64,000 nucleotides of DNA from NCBI GenBank assembly GCA_037310415.1, contig CP147780.1:2080001-2144000 (forward strand), in the 5' to 3' direction. The stretch comes from Candidatus Atabeyarchaeum deiterrae. Its GTDB lineage: Archaea > Asgardarchaeota > Atabeyarchaeia > Atabeyarchaeales > Atabeyarchaeaceae. Both the position numbers and the translations under genes were made by a program. Below, piece after piece: positions 27,573 to 64,000 of the stretch; position 1 is the first letter of the stretch; every line of letters begins with the position of its first letter. The notes under the pieces are model-generated. The model worked only from the letters and a program-made list of their open reading frames with translations, was not told the DNA's origin and ran no database searches.

Positions 27573-28094
27573 CTATTCTCTCAGAAGTCCTTCTATTACG
27601 CTTGTCGAAACTTGATAGGCTGATTCATCAAGGACAGAAATAGGATAGATCTTGATGTCCTTGAATGTCTCTTCCAGTTCTTCGACTGTCAAGACGTGTT
27701 TATCCCACTTTGTTACCAGAACATAGACCTCAGCATCAGGAGAGTTTCTTCTCAGGTTTTCATGGTACTTGCGGAAAAGCTTGGAGGCACCCTCCAGATT
27801 CTCCTTAGATGATGAATCTACCATGAAAAGGAAAACTGATACCTTTCCGAAAAGAGTCGGTATCCACTGGTCCGTCGAATAGGTGTCTACGAAGCTTGTC
27901 TGCCCGCCACAGTCAAATGCGGAGACCATCACACCCTCTGAACCCTTAAACTCATAAAGGGATATGCCAACGCCGAAAGTTGGTCTGTATTCTTCAATTT
28001 CACTGAATTCCTTTTTCTCGAAGACATGCTTGATGAAGGTCGTCTTTCCTGACGATGGTAGTCCCATTATGAGTATCTTCAGTATTTTTGGCAT
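27573..28094 (-). CDS. RagA/Gtr1-like small GTPase, G domain only
   Basis: GLPSSGKT, PT, DCGGQ, NSPDA..LVTKWD, ISV. Confidence 0.85.
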   Translation of the reverse strand: MPKILKILIMGLPSSGKTTFIKHVFEKKEFSEIEEYRPTFGVGISLYEFKGSEGVMVSAFDCGGQTSFVDTYSTDQWIPTLFGKVSVFLFMVDSSSKENLEGASKLFRKYHENLRRNSPDAEVYVLVTKWDKHVLTVEELEETFKDIKIYPISVLDESAYQVSTSVIEGLLRE

Positions 28095-28290
28095 TCTTTC
28101 GTTAACACCTAGCTATTGCTATTCTGATTCATGCGACCCATCAAGCTGCGAGCGTCAACTCCAAGATCCTTCTCGACGCAAGACGAACTCCCAATACAAC
28201 TATGCCGCGCAATTCCATATAACCGTATTCTGTTGAAAGACTTCTTTGGTGTGATTCACAAGTAGACCAGACACGTGACAAGAGCATTAC

Positions 28291-29097
28291 TCACACTGAC
28301 AACTGCTCCAATGTGTAGACTTTTTCCGGATACACTACTATGCCGCTCTCATTGATAGCCATAGCTCTGAGCCCCAATTCGGATTTGGTTCCCCTCATTT
28401 TGGTGATCTCAATACACCTGAACCGTAGGAGCCCCTTCTGAATTACCTGCAGAACGATTACTCCGTCAACTACGAACTCCTCAACTCCAAATCTTCCGAA
28501 TCCAATGGCGCCCCTAGGCACTTCTGAAGTAAGGACTGTAGTACATCTTAACTTTTTCAAAGCCGCACTGACGCGTTGCAACTCCCTGCGAACAATGTCT
28601 GTATTTCGGAATTGTAGGAGAAGAGCGGTAACCGAGTCAAGAACAATCCTCTTTGCCCCAATCTCATTTACAGTATACTCAATCGCCTTGATCAAGGGAT
28701 TTAGATTGAATTCTGCTGATTCAATGATAACATCAGAGGTCCTTGTTTTTGCAGCTGAGAAATCTATGAATGCAAGTTTCTTCGACGATTTCATTTCTGA
28801 AATTTCCCAACCGAAGCGTTGAGCGTCACTAATAACCTCATCTACAGGTTGCTCGAACGAGATATAGACTCCTGGCTCGTCGTAGAGTATTGCACCAGAG
28901 TACAGGAACTGTAGGGAGAAGATCGTTTTTCCACTTCCTGCTCCCCCTGCTACGAGCATCGTTCTCCCTTTTGGGAATCCGCCTTCAATGAGTTTATCTA
29001 GATTCGTTATTCCCGAAGGTGTTCTATCCATTCTATTATCTACCCTCCTGAAAGACTTCCCTGGCATCCTGTTGTGCAACAAAACTTTGCTCCCCAA
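28291..29097 (-). CDS. single-domain KaiC/RAD55-like ATPase (likely start 29031)
   Basis: SGITNLD..GGFP, GAGSGKT, SFEQ, LDSVT, GVEEFVVD, KMRG. Confidence 0.92.
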   Translation of the reverse strand: MGSKVLLHNRMPGKSFRRVDNRMDRTPSGITNLDKLIEGGFPKGRTMLVAGGAGSGKTIFSLQFLYSGAILYDEPGVYISFEQPVDEVISDAQRFGWEISEMKSSKKLAFIDFSAAKTRTSDVIIESAEFNLNPLIKAIEYTVNEIGAKRIVLDSVTALLLQFRNTDIVRRELQRVSAALKKLRCTTVLTSEVPRGAIGFGRFGVEEFVVDGVIVLQVIQKGLLRFRCIEITKMRGTKSELGLRAMAINESGIVVYPEKVYTLEQLSV

Positions 29098-29458
29098 CGG
29101 CGTTCAGCGTCGCTGTGAGAATATCATCTTTATCAGGCACGCCAACGAATTTCCATGCGCCTATTATGATTACTGGGAGCGCAAGTATTCCCTCTTCAAT
29201 CACCATGCGGGGATCATCATCTATGTCAATTTCCTCAACTTTGACTGTGTCTCCGAATTGCTGCAACACTGAGTCGAGTATGGCCTTCGCAGCGCGACAG
29301 AAACCACACTGCTTGGAAGTGAAGAACCGCACATTGGATCTCATCAGTTCGTCCTCCATAACTAACTGTGCTCTGTACAGGTTGGCGGAAACAACTTGCG
29401 CCGACAGGCTCCCGTCTCTTTCGCCTCGACTTGAATAATCATGATACTTTGAGACCAC
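29036..29458 (-). CDS. thioredoxin-fold protein, KaiB-like
   Basis: CGFC; EIDIDDDP..IEEGILALP resembles KaiB IDVxxxPxLAEEDKILATP; directly upstream of the KaiC-like gene. Confidence 0.75.
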   Translation of the reverse strand: MVSKYHDYSSRGERDGSLSAQVVSANLYRAQLVMEDELMRSNVRFFTSKQCGFCRAAKAILDSVLQQFGDTVKVEEIDIDDDPRMVIEEGILALPVIIIGAWKFVGVPDKDDILTATLNAVGEQSFVAQQDAREVFQEGR

Positions 29459-29476
29459 GTTTCCGTGGCACTTAAT

Positions 29477-29938
29477 TCACGAATCAGATTCGCAGATCCT
29501 TCTCGTCTTCAGCTCTCCTGTCAACATCGCTGCTTCGAAGAGTTTCCTTGCAAATTCTTGGAAATCCCTGTCGCAGAGTAAGGGAAAGACAACGGACCCC
29601 ATTGTGGTGAGCATCTTCTTATATCGTTCAGGCGTGTCCGGTCTGTCGAGAAAGAGCAACAGACAATGAGGCTTGCAGCGCAATGGTTCCAGATTGCCGG
29701 TGTAGTAGCTCATGACAACTCCTTCGCCCACTTCGAGCGAGATAAAGCCTGGCTCATCTCCACTGAAAGATGACAGACTGAAGATATCGTTCACTGTCTT
29801 GTCACTGAGTTCGAACGGGGGGTAAGAAGCTTTGAGGATCGGTTTGTCATTCTTTACATTATGTCCGATAATTGACACACACAAAAGATACGTCTCTTTG
29901 CCTGCGATGCATTTCTCAACACTAAGGGTTTTGGCCAT
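29477..29938 (-). CDS. longin/uDENN-like domain protein
   Basis: beta-beta (PILKASYP)-helix-three beta strands (FISL, VMSYY, CLLLFL)-two helices, matching the longin/uDENN topology. Confidence 0.55.
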   Translation of the reverse strand: MAKTLSVEKCIAGKETYLLCVSIIGHNVKNDKPILKASYPPFELSDKTVNDIFSLSSFSGDEPGFISLEVGEGVVMSYYTGNLEPLRCKPHCLLLFLDRPDTPERYKKMLTTMGSVVFPLLCDRDFQEFARKLFEAAMLTGELKTRRICESDS

Positions 29939-29990
29939 CTCAGTTTCCTCCTTTCAGAAACCTACCGTTTGTTGAAGTAGCAGGTAACAT

Positions 29991-30290
29991 TTAGAGCCCA
30001 CAGGGATCCTCATTCACGCTACTTGATTGGCATTCTGATTCTCCCAAGTTTCTTCTCTGTGCAACGATCCGCGCCAGTTTCAAACCTTCCTCCGTGAGAA
30101 CGTAACTCAGGGCATCCGCAAATATGAGTTTCAAGTCGACCAACACGCGCAGGCGGGTAGCGACCAGTTTACTACGCAGTCCAGTTATCGCCTGAATTTG
30201 CTCAGCTTTTCTGGCGCCATCCATTATCGCCAGCAACACAACCTCCCCACATTCTCCTAGAGTCGCATCGAGGATTCCAAGATCTGTCAA
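29991..30290 (-). CDS. small winged-helix protein
   Basis: IQAITGL..VATRLRVLVDLKLI..YVLTEEG. Confidence 0.75.
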   Translation of the reverse strand: MTDLGILDATLGECGEVVLLAIMDGARKAEQIQAITGLRSKLVATRLRVLVDLKLIFADALSYVLTEEGLKLARIVAQRRNLGESECQSSSVNEDPCGL

Positions 30291-30375
30291 GCGCCTGCCC
30301 CCAAGACCCCATCCTCAACAATCGTCACCAATTCTTCAACAGCGGTTACCCCGTACCAAGCCTGTCTACGACTGC

Positions 30376-30795
30376 CTACCCAGTTGTCTCTAAATCAATC
30401 CTCTTCACTTCGACCTTCGTGGTGCCTTCTAGTGACTCTATGAGGTCCTGCATTTCTTTGTCTTTAATGCTAATCTGTGAGGGATCAAAGTAAGCTTCGT
30501 ACAAGCATTTGTCTCCTTTGTAGCAGAATCCTGTCGAGTAGACGACCTTGAGGTTACGTTTCACAAATGTCTCACTCATCTGTTTGAGGTATTCTGGAGT
30601 AAGCTTCTTGATCTCTATAGATACCTTGACTGCTTCTGAACTAGTGGTCGGGATTAGTCTAACGGTCTTGGTGGACACAGCGAGGATCATTAATGCATTT
30701 GTGTTCTCCCCCAGAACCTTCTGAAATTCATTTGGCAGCAGTATGGGTTCATCAGAGATCTTCACCATCCTTGCGAACGTCACGTCTTGTGACAA
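30376..30795 (-). CDS. AbrB-like N-terminus plus ACT-like domain protein
   Basis: ILLPNEF..LG swapped-hairpin pattern; C-terminal beta-alpha-beta-beta-alpha-beta ACT-like pattern with CYKGDKC. Confidence 0.55.
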   Translation of the reverse strand: MSQDVTFARMVKISDEPILLPNEFQKVLGENTNALMILAVSTKTVRLIPTTSSEAVKVSIEIKKLTPEYLKQMSETFVKRNLKVVYSTGFCYKGDKCLYEAYFDPSQISIKDKEMQDLIESLEGTTKVEVKRIDLETTG

Positions 30796-31091
30796 TTCAA
30801 GTCACCACCCCATCCTTTCTTTTGCGGTTATCGCAAATCGAAGAGCGAAAACACTGAACAACACACAACTTATCAGAAACAGCTATATAAGTCAATCCGA
30901 AATCAATTAGTATTAGGCACGCACCGTTACGAACATTCTTCCGTTGAGGGGACGGGTTAAGAGCACAACACCCCGAATCCACGGTTGATCAGTGATCGCC
31001 TATCAGCGTCGTTGGGGGGTCTGATCAGGCGTATTTGTCACCCGGCGCCTACTGGCGCAACGGCGTCTCACGGATGAGGTAGTCGAGGCTG

Positions 31092-31901
31092 GTGTTGTTG
31101 AGCAACAAGAAGAACAGGAAACACAGTAAGAAAGATCAAAGTGGTCATAGATCCAGACATTCGGCCAATGTGGGTTTCAGGACAAAGGGCGGAATAGGAC
31201 TGCCTACGGATCCATGGTGGGAAGAAGCGTTCAAACTTGGCGTAGAGAGGGTAGCTGCGGAGGCGGCATTGAACTCACTCGAGGATGCAAAGAAACGGGG
31301 GATTATCGGTCCCAAAGTCTATGACAAACTAAGAGAAGTCTACGTTGAGAAATTGACGGTAGTGGGGCAAAAGACGACAAACTGGCACCAAGAGTTTCCC
31401 TCATTCTCTGAGCCCGAATCAAGGCGAGAAATGATGAACGAACTCAGCAAGGCTGCAGCTCAGCCTTATGAGATCCCAAGTACGGTTGTCGCTATGCACA
31501 GGCGCGAAGAGCAATCCACTTCTTATCCAACGGGAAGCCCAAGAACATTTTTGGCAGATCCCGCACCAACAAAGATGGAACCCAAGGTGCCCGCAGGTCC
31601 AATTAATACGAGACGGGCGATGCTAGATGAACTTAAGGGTATACTCTCATCTGCGACTCATTCTCTTACAAAGGCTCCTGCATCTTCTATCAGCGGAAAG
31701 CATGCCACACCACAGAGAAAGCTCGCCCGTCCGCCGGCAGGAGCTGACAAAGCTTCTCCAAAATCGCCCCCGAATGTGCAAGCTCCCAAAGTTCCAACTT
31801 CCTCACCAGCACCTAGACTTCCTACGAAGATCATGGAGCTAAACCGAGAGTTCTTGGAAGAATATCGGAAACTCAGAAAAGGTGGTCCCCGAGCTGAGTA
31901 A
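31092..31901 (+). CDS. proline-rich protein with N-terminal helical hairpin and repeated short amphipathic helices
   Basis: LEDAKKRGII..YDKL hairpin; RREMMNELSK, RRAMLDELKG, NREFLEEYRK motifs in a Pro/Ser-rich region. Confidence 0.65.
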   Translation: MLLSNKKNRKHSKKDQSGHRSRHSANVGFRTKGGIGLPTDPWWEEAFKLGVERVAAEAALNSLEDAKKRGIIGPKVYDKLREVYVEKLTVVGQKTTNWHQEFPSFSEPESRREMMNELSKAAAQPYEIPSTVVAMHRREEQSTSYPTGSPRTFLADPAPTKMEPKVPAGPINTRRAMLDELKGILSSATHSLTKAPASSISGKHATPQRKLARPPAGADKASPKSPPNVQAPKVPTSSPAPRLPTKIMELNREFLEEYRKLRKGGPRAE

Positions 31902-31953
31902 CATTTCACTCGTGCCATATCTAATGAACCCGAGCAAGAGGTGCTAAAGACAT

Positions 31954-34900
31954 ATGTTGAAAGAAGAAAGACCGGAAACTCTTGAGGAACAAGGAATTCT
32001 TTTCAATCAAATTCTGAAGGAAGCCATGGGCATCTCGGATCAGGCAGCAGAAGCATTCAAAGTTCTTCTCACTCTTGGTCCGCTAACCCTTGGAGAGATT
32101 TCAACTAATAGTGGTTTGGGTTATGCACTTTCAACGAAGGCAGTACTTGAACTGGAAAGCGAGCGCCTGGTCAGGCGCATTCCTGGAGTTTTGAGCCGCT
32201 TTACAACGATTCCTCCTTATGCTGGTTTCGTAGCATTTCTTAAGGATTTCCAGAAAATCGCTAAGAACCTCGGGGACAGCACTACCAGTGCCGTTGACTC
32301 CGCATTGACAACCGTCAGCAAGAATTGCGGAGACTGGAAGAAGGAGGCTCAACAGGCGGCTAAATCAGGCATACAGCAGACTGTAAGTGAGATTGACCTC
32401 TACAAAAGCAGCTCTTCAAAAAACGTAACTGATATGCTGGAGAAGTTGAAACAGGAAACCGAACTCACGAAGACCATGGTCACAGACTCAATTAAGAAGC
32501 ATGTTGATGAGCACAAGATAAAATCAACTGAAGTTGAAACAGAACTCGCCTCCGGAATAGACAACGTAAACACAAAACTTGACACATCAGCCAAGAAATA
32601 CCTGAAAGACACCACAGACATGATGTCCACTTTTCTGGAGAACTACAAAGGAACCGTTCAAACGTTTGCTGAAACCGTCCATACAAACTTACAACAGTAC
32701 AAGACTGATATCAGAGAGAACCTCATCGTATTAGAAAATGAGATCTCGTCAATTGAAGCCAAACTCGAGGAGAAAGCGAGATCTACGATAACAAGTTCTA
32801 AAACCAAGAGTTCCGATGTCCTGGAAAGCCAGAGAAAGTCATTTGGAGAGAAATCCCTCGAACTCCAGTCCGGCATCAGAGATGTTACCGATCGTTTCAT
32901 GAAGGCAGCTTCAACTAATCTTGGCAAGTTCAAGTCATCCGTCGATGGAGCGATGAAGGAATTCTCGGTTGACCTCAGCAAGACTCTATCGGAATTCAAG
33001 GAGAAGACCACCGCATCTCTCGACAAATGGTGGTCGAACTTCAAAACAGGGATCAACGACTCGACCCAACTAGTTTACAAGAACATAGATGTGCTGGTGA
33101 ATTCTATCACCCGTGAGGGAGAGAGCCTCAACTCATTGGTACAGGGGTTAGTCGGATCTTTTACAACGAGAACCAAATCCTCCTTTGGAGAGCTCAGAGG
33201 AAAAGTAGAAGAACTATACTCGACTGGACTAGCTAACCTAACCGGAGCCGCTTCTGCCATTAAGGGCACATTGGAGGGGCTCATTGCTTCCCACGTATCA
33301 TCGAGCCAACTTATATCATCATTCTTAGAATCGACGCTCTCAACGGTTATCCCAAGTTGCTCCAACGCTTTGGCAGCAGTGAGTTCAGAGATTGGCAAAA
33401 ATGCTCAGAAGATGATGGTGCCACTGAGCAAGAAAAACGAGGCATTATTGTCCGCCCTAACAACAAAAGCAACAAACAAAGTCTCCTCATCATTCCCGGC
33501 CTTGGAGAAGGAAGTCGGCGGGATACTTGAAAGAATTCTCGCATCAAACACGCCTGCACCAATTTCAGAGAGTTCCTCAAAACCGACAACCAGAAAGACG
33601 GCTTCACCTGGAAGAAAGACAGCCCTATCCGCTGAAGCGAAGGAAATCATAAAAGGTTTCGAGAGGAAACTTATCGATGAATTGAAAGAGTACCTCGAGG
33701 AAGAGGCAAGCACGGGGCATACTTCCTTTGAAGAAGAAGCCAAGAAGCTGCAAACCGAGATCCGCGGAACACCTTTCACAAGCCTGAAAGCAGCAAGGCA
33801 AGGGCTCGGACAAAGCGAGGTTATTGCCGCAAGTCTGTTGCCCAAGTTCGCCGAATACTCCCAATCGATTGAATCCCTCGGCACACAGGTAAAAGACTTC
33901 GTCGATGTCTCCGCAAGACAATATGCTGGCGAAGCCGAGATTGCCAAAAAGGCTTTGAACGATCTATTATTGAGAAACGAGGAAGCATTAGGAGGAACTC
34001 TTAAGAAGGTTACTGAAGGGATTGGCTCCAGCAAAGCTTCACGCACAAGGCAAATCGCCACACTCGTCTCCGAAGCTCAGAACACGATTGGATCAGCCTC
34101 CGCAAAACACTTGGACGAGTTGGATGAACAAATTCAGCAAAGCAAATCAGGCTTGCTCGCGCTCGTCAACCAAGCAACGAAGAAATCCGACACGGCAAAG
34201 TCGTCAGCACAGACAAGTATCGCGAATCAGGTCAGCACAACTCTGGGAACATGTAAAGAGATAACGGAGTCGACAACGAATTCCATGCGTGCGGCAATGA
34301 TATCAGTTTCGCAGGAATTCGACGCTCAAACCTCGGCTCTGCAGAAGGACCTAGGCAGCTTCATTGCCCAATCAACAGACGAGATAAAGGCCTTCGTAGA
34401 AGAATCTGCTTCCAGGGTCGCCGAATTCAAAGAGAATCAGTCAAAGCAGATCGACTTAAAACTGGACAAGGCAGTCAAGGAACTTGGGGATTTTTCGAAC
34501 AAGCAAGTGAGCACCGCAATCGATACAACCTCCGCAATGAATACCTCACTTTCGAAGCTAACCAACGCGTCGCTAGGGGAGTTCAAGTCAGAAGTGGTCG
34601 GGGGCAAGGATAGATTCCACAGGGTGATCTCTTCTCATCTGCAGGATTATGAGCAGGAAGCCTTCGGTGCCAGCGGAACATGCGGCTACCTTCTATCAAG
34701 ATCTTATGAGAAATATAGAGAAGTCTCAATGGTTAACGAAAAGAATCATTCAGACGCTCTACTGACTCACCAGACAAGATATGAGAACTCGATGAACACC
34801 GCACAATCCGGCTTAATAGGCTGCATTGACAAAAACGAAGCATTACTGAAGGAAGAGACCAAAAGGATCTTGGGAGACTTCCGCGATAGCATTGAAAAAC

Positions 34901-35442
34901 ACAAGAAGGCGTCGGCCAGCGTTGAATGGATCCTTCAAAGCGCTTGGATGGCACTTGAGCGCGCTCCTCAGTTTTCAGAATCCAACACGTGGCCGGTCAT
35001 ATCGAGAACAGCTTTGGCTGCACACCTACAGGATATGATCAAGCGAACCAAGAGTCACATAGCGATTGCACTTCCAACGCTTGCAGAAGCACCTCTTGAA
35101 GACTTACAAAAGGTCAAGAAAGCGACCAGAGTAACACTACTGATTGGCGAATCAAAGGGTGACGAGAATCAGGAGCAACTGCTTGCCGGGTTATCGAAGA
35201 TGGGCAACGTGAGCATTCGGGCATCAGGAAGTTTGTCTTACTTCGGATGCTCCAAGGATTCCGAGGAAATACTCTTCGCTCCGATTGCCCAGAAAGAAAA
35301 TGATACTATCGGAATAGTAAGTGTAGAGGATGGCTACATTGAACTCTTTGAAAAACTGGTCCTTCCGGCTTTACTTGCTCCATCCTATGATCTCAAAGAG
35401 TCCGCAAAGCAGCAATCGACACCCAAGAAGACGCAAGAATAA
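31954..35442 (+). CDS. giant TrmB-like protein: N-terminal wHTH, about 900 aa helical insert, C-terminal TrmB/PLD-like domain
   Basis: GPLTLGEIS..LESERLV..RFTTIPP TrmB HTH; W.VISR..MIKRTKSHI..DSEEILFA C-domain. Confidence 0.75.
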   Translation: MLKEERPETLEEQGILFNQILKEAMGISDQAAEAFKVLLTLGPLTLGEISTNSGLGYALSTKAVLELESERLVRRIPGVLSRFTTIPPYAGFVAFLKDFQKIAKNLGDSTTSAVDSALTTVSKNCGDWKKEAQQAAKSGIQQTVSEIDLYKSSSSKNVTDMLEKLKQETELTKTMVTDSIKKHVDEHKIKSTEVETELASGIDNVNTKLDTSAKKYLKDTTDMMSTFLENYKGTVQTFAETVHTNLQQYKTDIRENLIVLENEISSIEAKLEEKARSTITSSKTKSSDVLESQRKSFGEKSLELQSGIRDVTDRFMKAASTNLGKFKSSVDGAMKEFSVDLSKTLSEFKEKTTASLDKWWSNFKTGINDSTQLVYKNIDVLVNSITREGESLNSLVQGLVGSFTTRTKSSFGELRGKVEELYSTGLANLTGAASAIKGTLEGLIASHVSSSQLISSFLESTLSTVIPSCSNALAAVSSEIGKNAQKMMVPLSKKNEALLSALTTKATNKVSSSFPALEKEVGGILERILASNTPAPISESSSKPTTRKTASPGRKTALSAEAKEIIKGFERKLIDELKEYLEEEASTGHTSFEEEAKKLQTEIRGTPFTSLKAARQGLGQSEVIAASLLPKFAEYSQSIESLGTQVKDFVDVSARQYAGEAEIAKKALNDLLLRNEEALGGTLKKVTEGIGSSKASRTRQIATLVSEAQNTIGSASAKHLDELDEQIQQSKSGLLALVNQATKKSDTAKSSAQTSIANQVSTTLGTCKEITESTTNSMRAAMISVSQEFDAQTSALQKDLGSFIAQSTDEIKAFVEESASRVAEFKENQSKQIDLKLDKAVKELGDFSNKQVSTAIDTTSAMNTSLSKLTNASLGEFKSEVVGGKDRFHRVISSHLQDYEQEAFGASGTCGYLLSRSYEKYREVSMVNEKNHSDALLTHQTRYENSMNTAQSGLIGCIDKNEALLKEETKRILGDFRDSIEKHKKASASVEWILQSAWMALERAPQFSESNTWPVISRTALAAHLQDMIKRTKSHIAIALPTLAEAPLEDLQKVKKATRVTLLIGESKGDENQEQLLAGLSKMGNVSIRASGSLSYFGCSKDSEEILFAPIAQKENDTIGIVSVEDGYIELFEKLVLPALLAPSYDLKESAKQQSTPKKTQE

Positions 35443-35516: not shown

Positions 35517-36110
35517 CTATTCATGTAAGGCGCTCACGTATGGCGGTGGGGTTTTACCGTCTCTTGGCTGTCGCTGTTTCCTCTTTTCCAACATGTCATC
35601 TATGATCATTTGTGAAACCTTTCTGGCTGAGCCATCAGTGACAGATACTGGGTGAACCGTTACATTCTTGAATACACCCTTCAAATCATCCTCCGATAGA
35701 GTGTGTCTGTCCCATTTTGAAGCTAGCACGGAAACAACGCACTCATCTGAATACCTGATCACATTGTTGAGATACTTCTTGAAGAGTTTCCCCGCTTCCT
35801 TCAAGGTCTTCTTCGACGATGAATCGACCATGAAGAAGAGCAGAGACACCTCTGAGAATAAGTTTGGCAACCACTGGTCGGTAGAGTATGTGTCTATGAA
35901 ACTCGTCTGACCGCCGCAATCAAAAGCAGATACTTTCACTGTCTCCGAACCTTTGTAATTATACAACGTAATGTGCACACCGAATGTCGGAATATAATCT
36001 GTAAGCTGATTGAACTCCTTGCCCTCAAACACATACCTTTTAAAAGTTGTCTTCCCCGATGCAGGCATACCCATTACCAGAATTTTAAACACCGGCATCC
36101 TCAGGCTCAA
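35517..36110 (-). CDS. RagA/Gtr1-like small GTPase, paralog 2
   Basis: GMPASGKT, PTFG, FDCGGQTSFIDTYSTDQW, SKWD; close paralog of 27573-28094. Confidence 0.85.
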   Translation of the reverse strand: MSLRMPVFKILVMGMPASGKTTFKRYVFEGKEFNQLTDYIPTFGVHITLYNYKGSETVKVSAFDCGGQTSFIDTYSTDQWLPNLFSEVSLLFFMVDSSSKKTLKEAGKLFKKYLNNVIRYSDECVVSVLASKWDRHTLSEDDLKGVFKNVTVHPVSVTDGSARKVSQMIIDDMLEKRKQRQPRDGKTPPPYVSALHE

Positions 36111-61133: not shown

Positions 61134-61895
61134 TTGGGGAAAATGCCTGAGAGGGGCTATCTTTTGAATGAGAGAGAAAGCACTGGGATAGCTGGACTCG
61201 ATGAAGTGATCGGCGGAGGACTAGCCAGACCCTCACTGACTGCCTTGATTGGAGCGCCCGGCACAGGGACAACAACCTTCTGTAAGCAATTCATAATGTC
61301 ATCACTTCAACGCGAAAGGAATGTTATGGTAGCTTGCACGGATGAGCCAGTAGGACACTTTCTCAGACATTTCAGGTTCCCTCAACCTTTTGACCTTGAG
61401 CCCTACGTGAGACAAAACAGATTGGTTATCTTAGATATGTACGAGCGGTTCACAGAACGGCTTGGCATAAAGAGTTACAGCAACATTGAAGAGGTTGGTG
61501 AGATTCCACTAGGGGAAATACTTGAAGAGCTTACGGAAAGAGTTGCCAGCGGGGTTCCCGGACTGCCACGCGAGTTTAACACTGTCATAGACTCACTTAC
61601 GGCCGTTGCACCATTCGTTGGAGTCCGTGACATGTATGCGGTCTTGCGTGAGTCTCGGAGAAGAGTCAGAGAGGGTAAGCACGTTGTTGTTCTTACCGCT
61701 CATGAGGGCGCTCTTGAGGGGAACATCATTCAGGCTCTTAGGCAGCACGCTGACTGCGTCATAAAAATGACTATGTCCTTGTCCAAGACAGATTTGAAGA
61801 GGCTAATGATAATCGAGAAGGCAGGCTTCACAGAGATAAAGCAGGCAACGTTAGAATTCAGTATTGGGTCAGCCGGCATTGAGATCAAACAATAA
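61134..61895 (+). CDS. KaiC/RAD55-like ATPase, degenerate (type A1)
   Basis: TGIAGLD..GG, GAPGTGTTT, IDSLT, ADCVI, IEKAGF. Confidence 0.88.
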   Translation: MGKMPERGYLLNERESTGIAGLDEVIGGGLARPSLTALIGAPGTGTTTFCKQFIMSSLQRERNVMVACTDEPVGHFLRHFRFPQPFDLEPYVRQNRLVILDMYERFTERLGIKSYSNIEEVGEIPLGEILEELTERVASGVPGLPREFNTVIDSLTAVAPFVGVRDMYAVLRESRRRVREGKHVVVLTAHEGALEGNIIQALRQHADCVIKMTMSLSKTDLKRLMIIEKAGFTEIKQATLEFSIGSAGIEIKQ

Positions 61896-61916
61896 ACTTC
61901 AATTTCACGATTTGGG

Positions 61917-62813
61917 ATGAGCTCTCGAAAGGTTGATATTAGACTCATAAGAAAGGATATTCGTGATTTGTGCGGGGGGAGAAACGGGATAAACCGAACC
62001 AAGACTGAGAAAGTGAAGAGCCAAAATCCTAGGCCGCTTTCCCTCAACTCAGTGCCAAGCGCCCTAGAGAGCCATGAAGAGCGGATTCCTTCTGGCATAT
62101 TAGGACTAGATGCGGCTCTGGATGGTGGGTTTCCAGAAGGAACCATGATTTCCCTCGGTGGCGACATAGGAACCGGCACTTCAACCTTCTGTCTCCAAGT
62201 GGTGTGGTCATGGTTGACCACAGGGGGAGCAGCAGCATACTTCTGCGTTGACGACCCGCCTGAAACAGTTGTGAATCATTTCAAGAGCTACGGCTGGAAT
62301 GTAGAACGTTACATTGAGAAAAAACAGCTGACAGTATTTGACACAAATACTGTCACAAGCCACCTGTCATCTAAACCTGAGGGGCAGAATGGAGTCGCCG
62401 AGAGGAGGGCTCTCCTTGGTAAGTATCTTGGAGATGTACGGGAACAATTGCACTCCCTGGGAACTAACAACAACACGGCTCTTCCCACCTTGGGCGTGAT
62501 TGACTCACTCTCTTCGGTGGCTCCGTACATTGATCTGCGGTCAGCTTACGTGTTCGCTCACATGATCGCAGAATATATTAGGAAGAGCGAAGACCTACTA
62601 ATTGCAGTTGTTCACACGGGAGCTTTCGAGGCCAACATTGTCTGCGCATGTAATTCAGTAGCAGACGGCATAATCAGATTAGAATCTGCGCTTACTAAGG
62701 GGGAAGTGAAGAGACAACTTCGCATCGAGAAGATGGCATTCACGCAAATACCCCCAAAGACGCTTGAGTACAAAATTACGAGCAAGAATGGCATTAAGAT
62801 TATCACAAGGTAG
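61917..62813 (+). CDS. KaiC/RAD55-like ATPase, degenerate (type B1)
   Basis: SGILGLD..GGFP, GDIGTGTST, IDSLS, ADGII, IEKMAF. Confidence 0.88.
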   Translation: MSSRKVDIRLIRKDIRDLCGGRNGINRTKTEKVKSQNPRPLSLNSVPSALESHEERIPSGILGLDAALDGGFPEGTMISLGGDIGTGTSTFCLQVVWSWLTTGGAAAYFCVDDPPETVVNHFKSYGWNVERYIEKKQLTVFDTNTVTSHLSSKPEGQNGVAERRALLGKYLGDVREQLHSLGTNNNTALPTLGVIDSLSSVAPYIDLRSAYVFAHMIAEYIRKSEDLLIAVVHTGAFEANIVCACNSVADGIIRLESALTKGEVKRQLRIEKMAFTQIPPKTLEYKITSKNGIKIITR

Positions 62814-62945
62814 CTAGCCGGAGCCACAAGTTACCTTGGCCAAGCAATCAACGTCACACGATAGCGGAGCCAATGTTCAGTGGTTCCCAACACGGTCAGA
62901 CAACTTCACAGATAAGCGCTTTGGGAAGAACTGAGGCGAGCCCAA

Positions 62946-63701
62946 TTGGATCAACTTGAGAGAGCTGACTTTTCACAATCCAGAGATAGTACCGGCATAC
63001 ATAGACTTGATGAAGTAATCGGAGGAGGTTTTCCAAGACCATCAACGACGGCAATAGTTGGTGCACCCGGCTCAGGAACAACATCATTCTGTACGCAATT
63101 CGCAGTGTCGTCGCTACTGGAAGGAAGAAAAGTTCTAATAGTCTGTACTGACGAACCCGTCGAACATTTCCTAAGGTACTTCAAGTCACGGGGGCCATTG
63201 GATGTCGATTCTTATCTGGAGGAAAAAAAACTAGTCGTCGTCGACATGTATGGCAAGTTCATAGAGCATATCGGGATAAGAGACTATGGTGATGTGAACT
63301 TGGTCCGAGAGTTTCCTCTTAATAAGTTTATCCTCGAGACAAGGAGAGCTGTGCAGACTGAGGAAGGAGAGGAGCCAAGTGGACTGACCACTATCCTTGA
63401 TTCAGTCACAGCTCTATCTCCTTTCTTGGGCGTTCGTGATATATATAGAGGAGTACGTGAAGTGCAGGATTTGATCAGGGCACATAACAATATCGTTCTG
63501 ATGACGGTTCATGAGGGTGTGCTTGAAGGCAACTTCGTTCAGGCTGTAAGACAGCAAGCTGACAATGTCATCAGAATGAAGATGCGCTGGGTTAGATCGA
63601 ATCTGAAAAGAGAGATGATAATTGAAAAGGTGGGCTTCACGGAGATCAAGCAACCAGTGCTGGGCTTTGTAATAACCGAACGAGGAATCGAAATCATCTA
63701 A
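62946..63701 (+). CDS. KaiC/RAD55-like ATPase, degenerate (type A2)
   Basis: TGIHRLD..GGFP, GAPGSGTTS, LDSVT, IEKVGF. Confidence 0.88.
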   Translation: MDQLERADFSQSRDSTGIHRLDEVIGGGFPRPSTTAIVGAPGSGTTSFCTQFAVSSLLEGRKVLIVCTDEPVEHFLRYFKSRGPLDVDSYLEEKKLVVVDMYGKFIEHIGIRDYGDVNLVREFPLNKFILETRRAVQTEEGEEPSGLTTILDSVTALSPFLGVRDIYRGVREVQDLIRAHNNIVLMTVHEGVLEGNFVQAVRQQADNVIRMKMRWVRSNLKREMIIEKVGFTEIKQPVLGFVITERGIEII

Positions 63702-63844
63702 GTTGATCTCCTATTGAAGTGGTTAATGTGGCTCCATTCAGATCGAGGCAAGAATGACAATCTACTCCCGTACCGAAAGAGTGAGATTTGTCCCTCTGAG
63801 AAGAGATTGCCTAGTCGCTGGGAAGTTGAGAGAGTGAATCAGAT

Positions 63845-64000
63845 TTGATACCAAAGTCAAGTACCTTCAGAGTTGACACTGAGAGAATTCCATCTGGTAT
63901 AACACTACTAGACAGGACACTTGCCGGAGGATTGCCCAGAGGAACGTTCATCTGTATCGACGGAGACATAGGAACTGGGACATCAACCTTCTGCATCCAA
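63845..64000 (+). CDS. KaiC/RAD55-like ATPase, degenerate (type B2), runs off window edge
   Basis: Manual translation from TTG 63845: ERIPSGITLLDRTLAGGLPRGTFICIDGDIGTGTSTFCIQ. Confidence 0.85.
   Translation, partial: MIPKSSTFRVDTERIPSGITLLDRTLAGGLPRGTFICIDGDIGTGTSTFCIQ

Follow-up and report, generated by a model that had tools for sequence, protein, structure and literature searches.

Rag GTPases of eukaryotes are obligate heterodimers of two paralogs, RagA/B with RagC/D, and their C-terminal roadblock domain mediates dimerization. In eukaryotes they are served by longin GTPase-activating protein (GAP) complexes, and in the longin GAPs NPRL2, FLCN, and SMCR8 a GP motif occupies the b1-b2 loop (PMC12290439). 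NPRL2-like longins and Rag-like GTPases are also known in Asgard archaea, and the papers describing them neither report an operon joining a Rag-family GTPase to an NPRL2-like longin nor mention KaiC in the longin/Rag context (bioRxiv 10.1101/2020.10.19.343400; PMC12290439; PMC10933270). We analyzed a 64,000-nucleotide (nt) stretch of the genome of Candidatus Atabeyarchaeum deiterrae (contig CP147780.1, positions 2,080,001 to 2,144,000; here called the window), in which six adjacent genes at 27573-30795 encode, in order of transcription, an ACT-like protein, a winged-helix-turn-helix (wHTH) protein, a longin, a thioredoxin, a KaiC-type ATPase, and a Rag-like GTPase. We lean toward reading this cluster as the form taken in the Atabeyarchaeia lineage by a recurrent Asgard signaling cassette composed of a KaiB-like thioredoxin, KaiC, a small GTPase, and a roadblock or longin protein. 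Its lineage-specific traits would be a roadblock-less Rag-family GTPase present in two copies, a stand-alone NPRL2-like longin, and the ACT and wHTH genes at its head.

With the eukaryotic Rag GTPases and their regulators GATOR1 (NPRL2-NPRL3-DEPDC5) and FLCN-FNIP, the cluster shares the Rag/Gtr G domain and a longin fold of the GATOR1/SEA-complex (SEAC) type. However, the window GTPase has no C-terminal roadblock domain, so no Rag-type dimer would be formed, and the window longin stands alone, with no DENN or C-terminal domains, no DEPDC5, and no GP motif. Unlike the eukaryotic pathway, the locus has no Ragulator or TOR (Asgards are also without a TOR kinase homolog; bioRxiv 10.1101/2020.10.19.343400), and the longin and GTPase of the window are a candidate pair. 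The published Asgard NPRL2-like and FLCN/SMCR8-type longins and Rag-like GTPases are proteins of the same kinds from the same phylum; the FLCN/SMCR8-type longins carry both a GP motif and an arginine finger, and the identity of their GTPases has been asked about (PMC12290439). Liu et al. described a conserved Asgard operon whose GTPase is Rab-like and not a Rag, Tran et al. found the MK-D1 GTPases generally outside operons with longin or roadblock genes (PMC10933270), and a structural survey (Nat Microbiol 2026) mentions neither Rag, longin, nor KaiC (PMC12962969). An earlier note on this DNA, made from the sequence alone, knew of no described system with this combination of genes. The linkage is indeed unpublished in the Asgard longin and Rag papers, but the parts, and the theme of KaiC with a GTPase and a roadblock protein, are known or recurrent.

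Archaeal KaiC has KaiB-like partners of the thioredoxin family, and KaiC-family ATPases are tied to archaeal type IV pilus and archaellum loci (PMC4858521). As in the archaeal pairs of KaiC-like and KaiB-like genes (arCOG01174; PMC4858521), a thioredoxin-fold gene in the window lies directly upstream of, and nearly overlaps, a gene for a single-domain KaiC; unlike in those pairs, the window thioredoxin keeps a redox-type CGFC, and the pair is set between a longin and a Rag-like GTPase. The bacterial and archaeal MglA-MglB system, a GTPase with its Roadblock GAP, likewise encodes a small GTPase together with a roadblock-superfamily regulator, whereas in the window the regulator is a longin, the GTPase is Rag-like, and KaiC, thioredoxin, and ACT parts are added. 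An operon of two other Asgard families (f13 and f14) resembles the window cluster in having an orthologous KaiC, a homologous thioredoxin-fold gene just upstream of it, a GTPase, and a roadblock-superfamily protein, all co-oriented. There, however, the CxxC is gone from the thioredoxin-fold protein, which scores as KaiB, while that of the window retains CGFC; the GTPase resembles Arf/MglA, not Rag, and forms a fusion with a degenerate KaiC; the partner is Roadblock/LC7, not a longin; and the operon has no ACT or wHTH genes.

Layout and conservation of the cluster

The earlier note described six co-oriented minus-strand genes with a gap of about 200 bp before the GTPase, and the listing of open reading frames (ORFs) agreed with both statements, the gap being 196 nt long (Table 1). 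The listed ORFs have lengths of 139, 99, 153, 140 (29036-29458), 268 (28291-29097), and 173 amino acids (aa), and the gene calls of relatives, in which the thioredoxin genes encode about 102-110 aa, suggest that the true thioredoxin and KaiC genes are shorter than listed. The first five genes are separated by 85, 52, and 18-117 nt and then, between thioredoxin and KaiC, by 4 nt. Five of the six ORFs, all but the wHTH gene, had a significant family or fold match. Because of these matches, and because six homologs follow each other in the same order on six other contigs, the cluster is beyond chance.

The six-gene order was identical in all of the contexts compared (the window, L001, L003, L005, L095, L096, and L097), with protein identities ranging from 55 to 89% and with thioredoxin and KaiC spaced by 1-4 nt in every one of the seven. 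Insertions and rearrangements were found outside the cluster alone: between the GTPase and TatD, relatives have one to five additional genes, and on the far side they carry a second GTPase or a KaiC-like gene. The earlier note had named a gene order not conserved in relatives as refuting its proposal; the order was conserved in 7/7 contexts, within one lineage. The flanking TatD, metallo-beta-lactamase, and 1162-aa genes are largely syntenic too.

Table 1. Coordinates of the cluster, its neighbors, and related operons (L and G numbers are our handles for loci and genomes)
Feature	Coordinates	Strand	Remarks
Rag/Gtr-family small GTPase, G domain only	27573..28094	-	173 aa
Spacer before GTPase	28095..28290	-	Non-coding, 196 nt
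Single-domain KaiC-type ATPase	28291..29031	-	246 aa; start 4 nt past thioredoxin stop
Thioredoxin-fold protein, CGFC intact	29036..29458 (listed ORF)	-	Start probably 29359 or 29344
Stand-alone longin-domain protein, NPRL2/uDENN-like	29477..29938	-	153 aa
Small winged-helix protein	29991..30290	-	99 aa here; 82-98 aa in relatives
First gene, ACT-like C-terminal half (residues ~52-138), possible AbrB-like N terminus	30376..30795	-	139 aa
Divergent intergenic region	30796..31091	.	TTATATA box ~90 nt upstream of first gene; GGTGGTGA motif just upstream
Two divergent neighbor genes	31092..35442	+	269-aa Pro-rich protein; 1162-aa TrmB-wHTH/coiled-coil protein
Second Rag-like G-domain GTPase	35517..36110	-	Paralog, 57% identity to first
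G116 operon	L100:1085-3723 (G116:C1:2388008-2390646)		KaiB-like, KaiC, degenerate-KaiC::Arf/MglA-like GTPase, Roadblock/LC7
f13 operon	L107:365-3853 (G115:C6)		As in G116, plus further degenerate KaiC

The thioredoxin-KaiC pair and its recurrence with GTPases

The thioredoxin matched TIGR00411 (E value of 5.3e-17) and scored above the cut-offs of the Glutaredoxin (32.3 bits, 1.1e-7) and Thioredoxin (27.6 bits) models. KaiB has a thioredoxin-like fold without the redox CxxC. Against the Pfam KaiB model, the window protein reached 15.8 bits (E value of 0.011) at a cut-off of 27 and thus fell outside that family. It is homologous (2e-9) to the KaiB-like protein of G116, a complete 3.6-Mb genome of another Asgard family, which is encoded at the same position relative to KaiC and passes the KaiB cut-off with 27.9 bits. 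Homology and position together suggest that the thioredoxin is a KaiB-like partner of KaiC. The label KaiB-like given to this gene earlier is therefore apt in the sense of a homolog and positional equivalent of a KaiB-like gene, but not as KaiB membership, since the protein is a CxxC thioredoxin below the KaiB cut-off.

The following gene had been called KaiC-like, and its product matched PF06745 with 239 bits (4.9e-71). Circadian KaiC has duplicated CI and CII domains and is about 500 aa long. With one domain and 246 aa the window protein is not of this type, and its scores with the NCBIfam circadian KaiC models (222 and 188 bits) were under the respective cut-offs of 408 and 546. Its best match outside its own family was the KaiC of G116 (42% identity); the two are reciprocal best matches, with a margin of 44 bits over the next paralog. 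In G116 this gene belongs to a co-oriented operon encoding a KaiB-like protein, KaiC, a degenerate KaiC fused to a small GTPase, and Roadblock/LC7, and the fusion of degenerate KaiC to GTPase was present in 11/11 genomes of f13 and f14. In a further group of families (f30-f32), the closest thioredoxin homologs precede KaiC and a degenerate KaiC in 12 of the 28 loci, and a Ras/Rab-like GTPase was found alongside in the loci that were checked (L133, L150, and L153). Overall, at least five Asgard families have a pair of thioredoxin or KaiB-like protein and KaiC together with a small GTPase. The type of GTPase differs by lineage, being Rag-like in the window, Arf/MglA-like with fusion to degenerate KaiC and a Roadblock partner, or Rab-like, and between lineages both the GTPase family and its roadblock-superfamily partner are swapped.

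Some further loci concern the same proteins. A CxxC-type thioredoxin (KaiB ~26 bits) is followed by KaiC and a degenerate KaiC (DUF7504) at L133, L136, L150, L151, L153, L156, L158, and L160. At L137:922-2925 and 11 similar loci of family f11, the closest thioredoxin homologs lie inside PAS-thioredoxin-histidine kinase proteins of ~670 aa, which implies that this thioredoxin type has been reused as a signaling domain. The 2.76-Mb genome of the window contains ~25 KaiC-like genes. Four of them follow each other on the plus strand at 61179-64000, in an array that runs past the window end, and elsewhere in the genome (G000:C1:1349395-1350702; L113:643-1971) a 248-aa KaiC is convergent with a 169-aa Arf/MglA-like small GTPase.

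The Rag-like GTPase and its paralog

The GTPase matched the Pfam family Gtr1_RagA (PF04670) with 81.1 bits and an E value of 1.1e-22, far above the cut-off of 22 bits, versus 41.7 bits for Arf and 19.3 for Ras. Its best solved relatives were yeast Gtr1 (1.4e-12) and human RagA (2.3e-12), ahead of the Asgard GTPases 8oun/8oum and of Arl1 (6.5e-8). Both of the RagA-like segments from which the gene had been recognized are present in the translation and align, in the HMMER alignment, with the DCGGQ and SPDA..KxD segments of Gtr1. Thus, the identification as a Rag-like GTPase was correct.

The G domain fills all 173 aa, and the C-terminal roadblock domain of Rag proteins is missing. In other families, the nearest relatives are full-length Rag-like proteins of about 305-335 aa, one of which likewise has Gtr1/RagA as its best solved matches; on the basis of these lengths, the GTPase of this lineage seems to be a shortened form. 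A second G-domain GTPase of the same kind is encoded nearby (Table 1), and in two relatives (L096 and G002:C8) this paralog stands in tandem directly after the first GTPase. When the surroundings of full-length Rag-like relatives from four other families were searched with phmmer and hmmsearch, neither KaiC nor thioredoxin nor ACT genes turned up next to them; one longin-like ORF lay 5 kb from such a relative, and divergent longins could escape these sequence searches.

Two other arrangements of Rag-like genes were seen. At L085:8001-11971 (G127:C3), two full-length Rag-like genes (306 and 312 aa) on opposite strands are separated by 2 kb and could be a RagA/RagC-like pair. At L092:5033-9357, in the Atabeyarchaeia-1 genome G003, the ortholog of the second Rag-like GTPase lies between two KaiC-family genes, one of which carries DUF7504/MEDS-like signatures.

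The longin protein

The longin gene is present as a single copy in the genome. Its product had no Pfam or NCBIfam match, and a phmmer search against 1.8 billion representatives returned its own cluster alone. The AF2 model, built from 20 homologs (pLDDT 72), has the exact longin topology, b-b-a-b-b-b-a-a. VIA-align placed it closest to a Lokiarchaeal longin (8yqg_B; Z 12.1, rmsd 2.7, 122 residues aligned), followed by chain B of GATOR1 (8fw5_B; Z 11.6, rmsd 3.0, 124 aligned, residues 6-144), which from its length and the aligned range is probably NPRL2, and by a SEAC chain (8adl_S; Z 10.7, rmsd 3.2, 128 aligned); Lst4 and the FLCN complex reached Z values of 9.2 and 8.4. The best-ranked Foldseek matches were all longin or roadblock-superfamily domains, at weak E values (1.9e-3 at best). 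In the Atlas, the language-model look-alikes were NPR2/C9orf72/DENND11/Avl9 clusters (0.94, 192 shared features), and the shape look-alikes were Asgard proteins and then DENND11 and uDENN. The longin proposed for 29477-29938 is upheld.

Two features are expected of a longin GAP, a catalytic arginine finger and a GP motif. A candidate arginine, R87, lies in the b4-b5 loop, which we take to be the site of the NPRL2 and FLCN arginine fingers, and is found in 18/20 homologs, the other two having H and K. The loop that bears it is an insertion missing from most of the distant members of the longin family. Searching PDB sequences with the longin profile gave no longin match, hence no mapping by sequence onto R78 of NPRL2. 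In the b1-b2 loop, whose position was judged from the predicted strands and not from a structural alignment, K32 is followed by P, A, V, or T; there is no conserved Gly-Pro and so no GP motif. GAP chemistry is putative and, if anything, weakened. Complex prediction for the longin with the GTPase gave a score of 0.00, which is no evidence either way.

The longin profile also picked up weaker relatives, in 32 of 400 Asgard genomes; most of them are the N-terminal domains of ~360-aa proteins that contain a wHTH farther along the chain. This longin-wHTH family, found in Thor/Loki-type genomes, is the wider family of the window longin, and in f13 its gene lies directly upstream of an N-terminally extended Arf-like GTPase. 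At L043:7962-9924 and L044:7965-9967, 360-370-aa proteins with a longin and an ArsR/TrmB-type wHTH are encoded directly upstream of a 280-aa Arf-like GTPase with an N-terminal extension of 120 aa. The idea that the separate wHTH gene of the window corresponds to the wHTH region of these fusions, in the manner of a Rosetta stone, was rejected at an hhalign probability of 0.2%.

Cys20, Cys88, Cys92, and Cys122 are invariant in the longin, His91 is near invariant, and the candidate arginine stands in an R-C-x-P-H-C sequence. Similarly, Cys91 and Cys97 are invariant in the homologs of the ACT protein. As these residues occur beside a gene for a redox-type thioredoxin, a redox or metal site is possible.

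The ACT-like and winged-helix genes

The first gene had been read as AbrB-ACT, of which the ACT half is upheld by its fold. The AbrB half, which would be an N-terminal swapped-hairpin DNA-binding domain of the AbrB/SpoVT (MazE) type, is hinted at by a match to NCBIfam PRK08577 far under the cut-off (4.5e-4) and by a weakly matching Atlas look-alike cluster (0.76) that carries MazE_antitoxin plus ACT. In the AF2 model (pLDDT 72, with low confidence at the N terminus), the C-terminal half has the order beta-alpha-beta-beta-alpha-beta. VIA-align matches, with Z values from 10.6 down to 9 overall, were to the C-terminal domain of NikR (10.6) and to the ACT domains of AHAS small subunits, Rel, aspartate kinase, and PGDH (10.4-9.4). 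Pfam ACT gave no sequence match for the protein, and a Pfam scan of all its homologs gave nothing useful; on the model, the protein would be an ACT-domain member by fold alone.

The wHTH gene is kept in the seven contexts. Its Pfam matches were all under the cut-offs, the best being HTH_45 (5.5e-4), followed by wHTH-PRTase_assc (6e-4) and HxlR (1.6e-3).

Transcription signals and neighboring genes

The intergenic region upstream of the first gene is likely a promoter region, as a TATA-like TTATATA and a strong ribosome-binding motif, both read from the sequence, precede the gene. The spacer between KaiC and the GTPase varies from 65 to 196 nt among relatives. A conserved GGTG ribosome-binding motif lies ~14 nt upstream of the GTPase ATG, and it alone was conserved in the aligned spacers of the seven contexts, in which no shared promoter element was found. 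No RNA data set was listed as containing the whole stretch. One metatranscriptome contained a 159-nt RNA-library contig inside the GTPase gene and a second contig that overlaps the stretch from 31140 onward, within the 269-aa gene; no contig of that metatranscriptome bridges the 196-nt gap between KaiC and the GTPase.

The 269-aa and 1162-aa genes adjoin the cluster in 5/5 contexts that reach that far and are possibly linked to it. The larger protein matched Pfam TrmB (3.5e-5) and has a coiled coil of ~900 aa. At the other end, the gene after the GTPase is a convergent TatD. Within the window, none of the genes seen next to the cluster relate to pili, archaella, or the cytoskeleton.

Alternative explanations

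In favor of a lineage-specific version of a recurrent cassette are the families and folds of the products, the order kept in 7/7 contexts, the 1-4-nt spacing of thioredoxin and KaiC, the tandem paralog, the reciprocal match with G116, the recurrence of the theme across families, the KaiC convergent with a small GTPase elsewhere in this genome, and the longin-wHTH genes directly upstream of an Arf-like GTPase in f13, along with the published KaiB-like partners of archaeal KaiC (PMC4858521) and longin GAP complexes of eukaryotic Rag GTPases (PMC12290439). Several observations weigh against it. The exact six-gene combination was found in one lineage alone and, given the syntenic flanks, its conserved order may partly reflect recent common ancestry, so that order conservation taken alone is modest evidence. 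A spacer of variable length (196 nt here) parts the GTPase from KaiC, and no RNA contig crosses it; with ~25 KaiC-like genes in the genome, some KaiC adjacency is expected by chance; the closest full-length Rag-like relatives have no sequence-detectable KaiC, thioredoxin, or longin neighbors; and the longin has no GP motif, its R87 is not invariant, and the loop is missing in most of the distant members. Synteny without shared function, in which two or three independent units (ACT-wHTH-longin, thioredoxin-KaiC, and GTPase) are kept together by close kinship, is an alternative: every context belongs to a single lineage in which the flanks are largely syntenic, the GTPase has its own ribosome-binding motif behind the 196-nt spacer, KaiC paralogs are many, Rag-like orthologs occur elsewhere without these neighbors, and MK-D1 GTPases generally lie outside longin/roadblock operons (PMC10933270). 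However, indels and rearrangements hit the flanks and never the interior of the cluster, the second paralog enters the cluster in two relatives, and the association of KaiB/KaiC with a GTPase recurs independently in four or more additional Asgard families, where the GTPases differ and the genes can even be fused. We consider shared descent without shared function rather doubtful for these reasons.

If the cassette reading is right, the families, order, and recurrence observed here lead us to infer the following scheme. The longin would bind the Rag-like GTPase or GTPases as a platform, a GAP, or a guanine nucleotide exchange factor (GEF); the ATPase activity or phospho-state of KaiC would gate the GTPase switch; the CxxC thioredoxin would modulate KaiC as a redox input; and the ACT protein would sense a small ligand and, together with the wHTH protein, control transcription from the divergent promoter. 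In a further reading, which we judge unlikely, the cluster is a prokaryotic forerunner of Rag regulation: the NPRL2-like longin would itself act as GAP or GEF on two Rag GTPases without roadblock domains, and KaiC, a redox-active KaiB-like thioredoxin, and the ACT sensor would gate this control. The earlier note proposed nutrient signaling. In such a pathway the ACT protein would detect an amino acid or metabolite, the longin would serve as an arginine-finger GAP of the GATOR1/FLCN type, KaiC and thioredoxin would supply energy and redox inputs, and the output would be transcriptional. The GTPase is of the Rag family, the longin is near those of SEAC and of GATOR1 chain B (probably NPRL2), the first gene is ACT-like, an arginine in the b4-b5 loop is nearly invariant, and the literature seeks GTPase partners for Asgard GAP-like longins (PMC12290439). 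Yet the nutrient link has no direct support, Asgards are without a TOR kinase homolog (bioRxiv 10.1101/2020.10.19.343400), the GP motif and the Rag roadblock domain are missing, R87 varies, and ACT domains bind many kinds of ligand. Additionally, the same KaiB/KaiC core occurs elsewhere with non-Rag GTPases, which points to a generic switch rather than a Rag-specific pathway, and we find the nutrient pathway quite improbable. We give the least credence to a spatial or structural switch in the style of MglA/MglB, in which the GTPase, longin, and KaiC would act on an effector of the cytoskeleton, the membrane, or chromatin, such as the 1162-aa protein, and not on metabolism. Such a switch would fit the retention of the 269-aa and 1162-aa genes beside the cluster in 5/5 contexts reaching them, the pairing of an MglB-type Roadblock with an Arf/MglA-like GTPase in the f13/f14 cassette, and the link of KaiC-family ATPases to archaeal type IV pilus/archaellum loci (PMC4858521). 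However, the window has no pilus, archaellum, or cytoskeletal genes beside the cluster, the coiled-coil protein is uncharacterized, and this explanation overlaps the cassette reading, from which it differs in output alone.

Significance

Asgard genomes are rich in GTPases of the Rag-, Arf-, and Rab-like types and in longin and roadblock proteins, and matching these regulators to their GTPases is a recognized open problem (PMC10933270; PMC12290439). The cluster names a clonable candidate pair, the NPRL2-like longin of 153 aa and the Rag-like G domain of 173 aa, together with the paralog of the latter, adjoining a thioredoxin/KaiC pair that accompanies GTPases of three families across Asgard lineages. 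On comparative evidence from one lineage, the longin and the GTPase are a testable candidate couple. If they do not interact, the locus would be an ordinary lineage-specific neighborhood. If they do, no earlier couple of longin and Rag would have been matched in a prokaryote, and GTPase switches of the eukaryotic type would be tied to the archaeal KaiC network. Direct control of the Rag-like pair by the longin, if true, would mean that Asgard archaea had longin-to-Rag wiring, connected to the archaeal KaiC signaling hub, earlier than there were TOR, Ragulator, and lysosomes.

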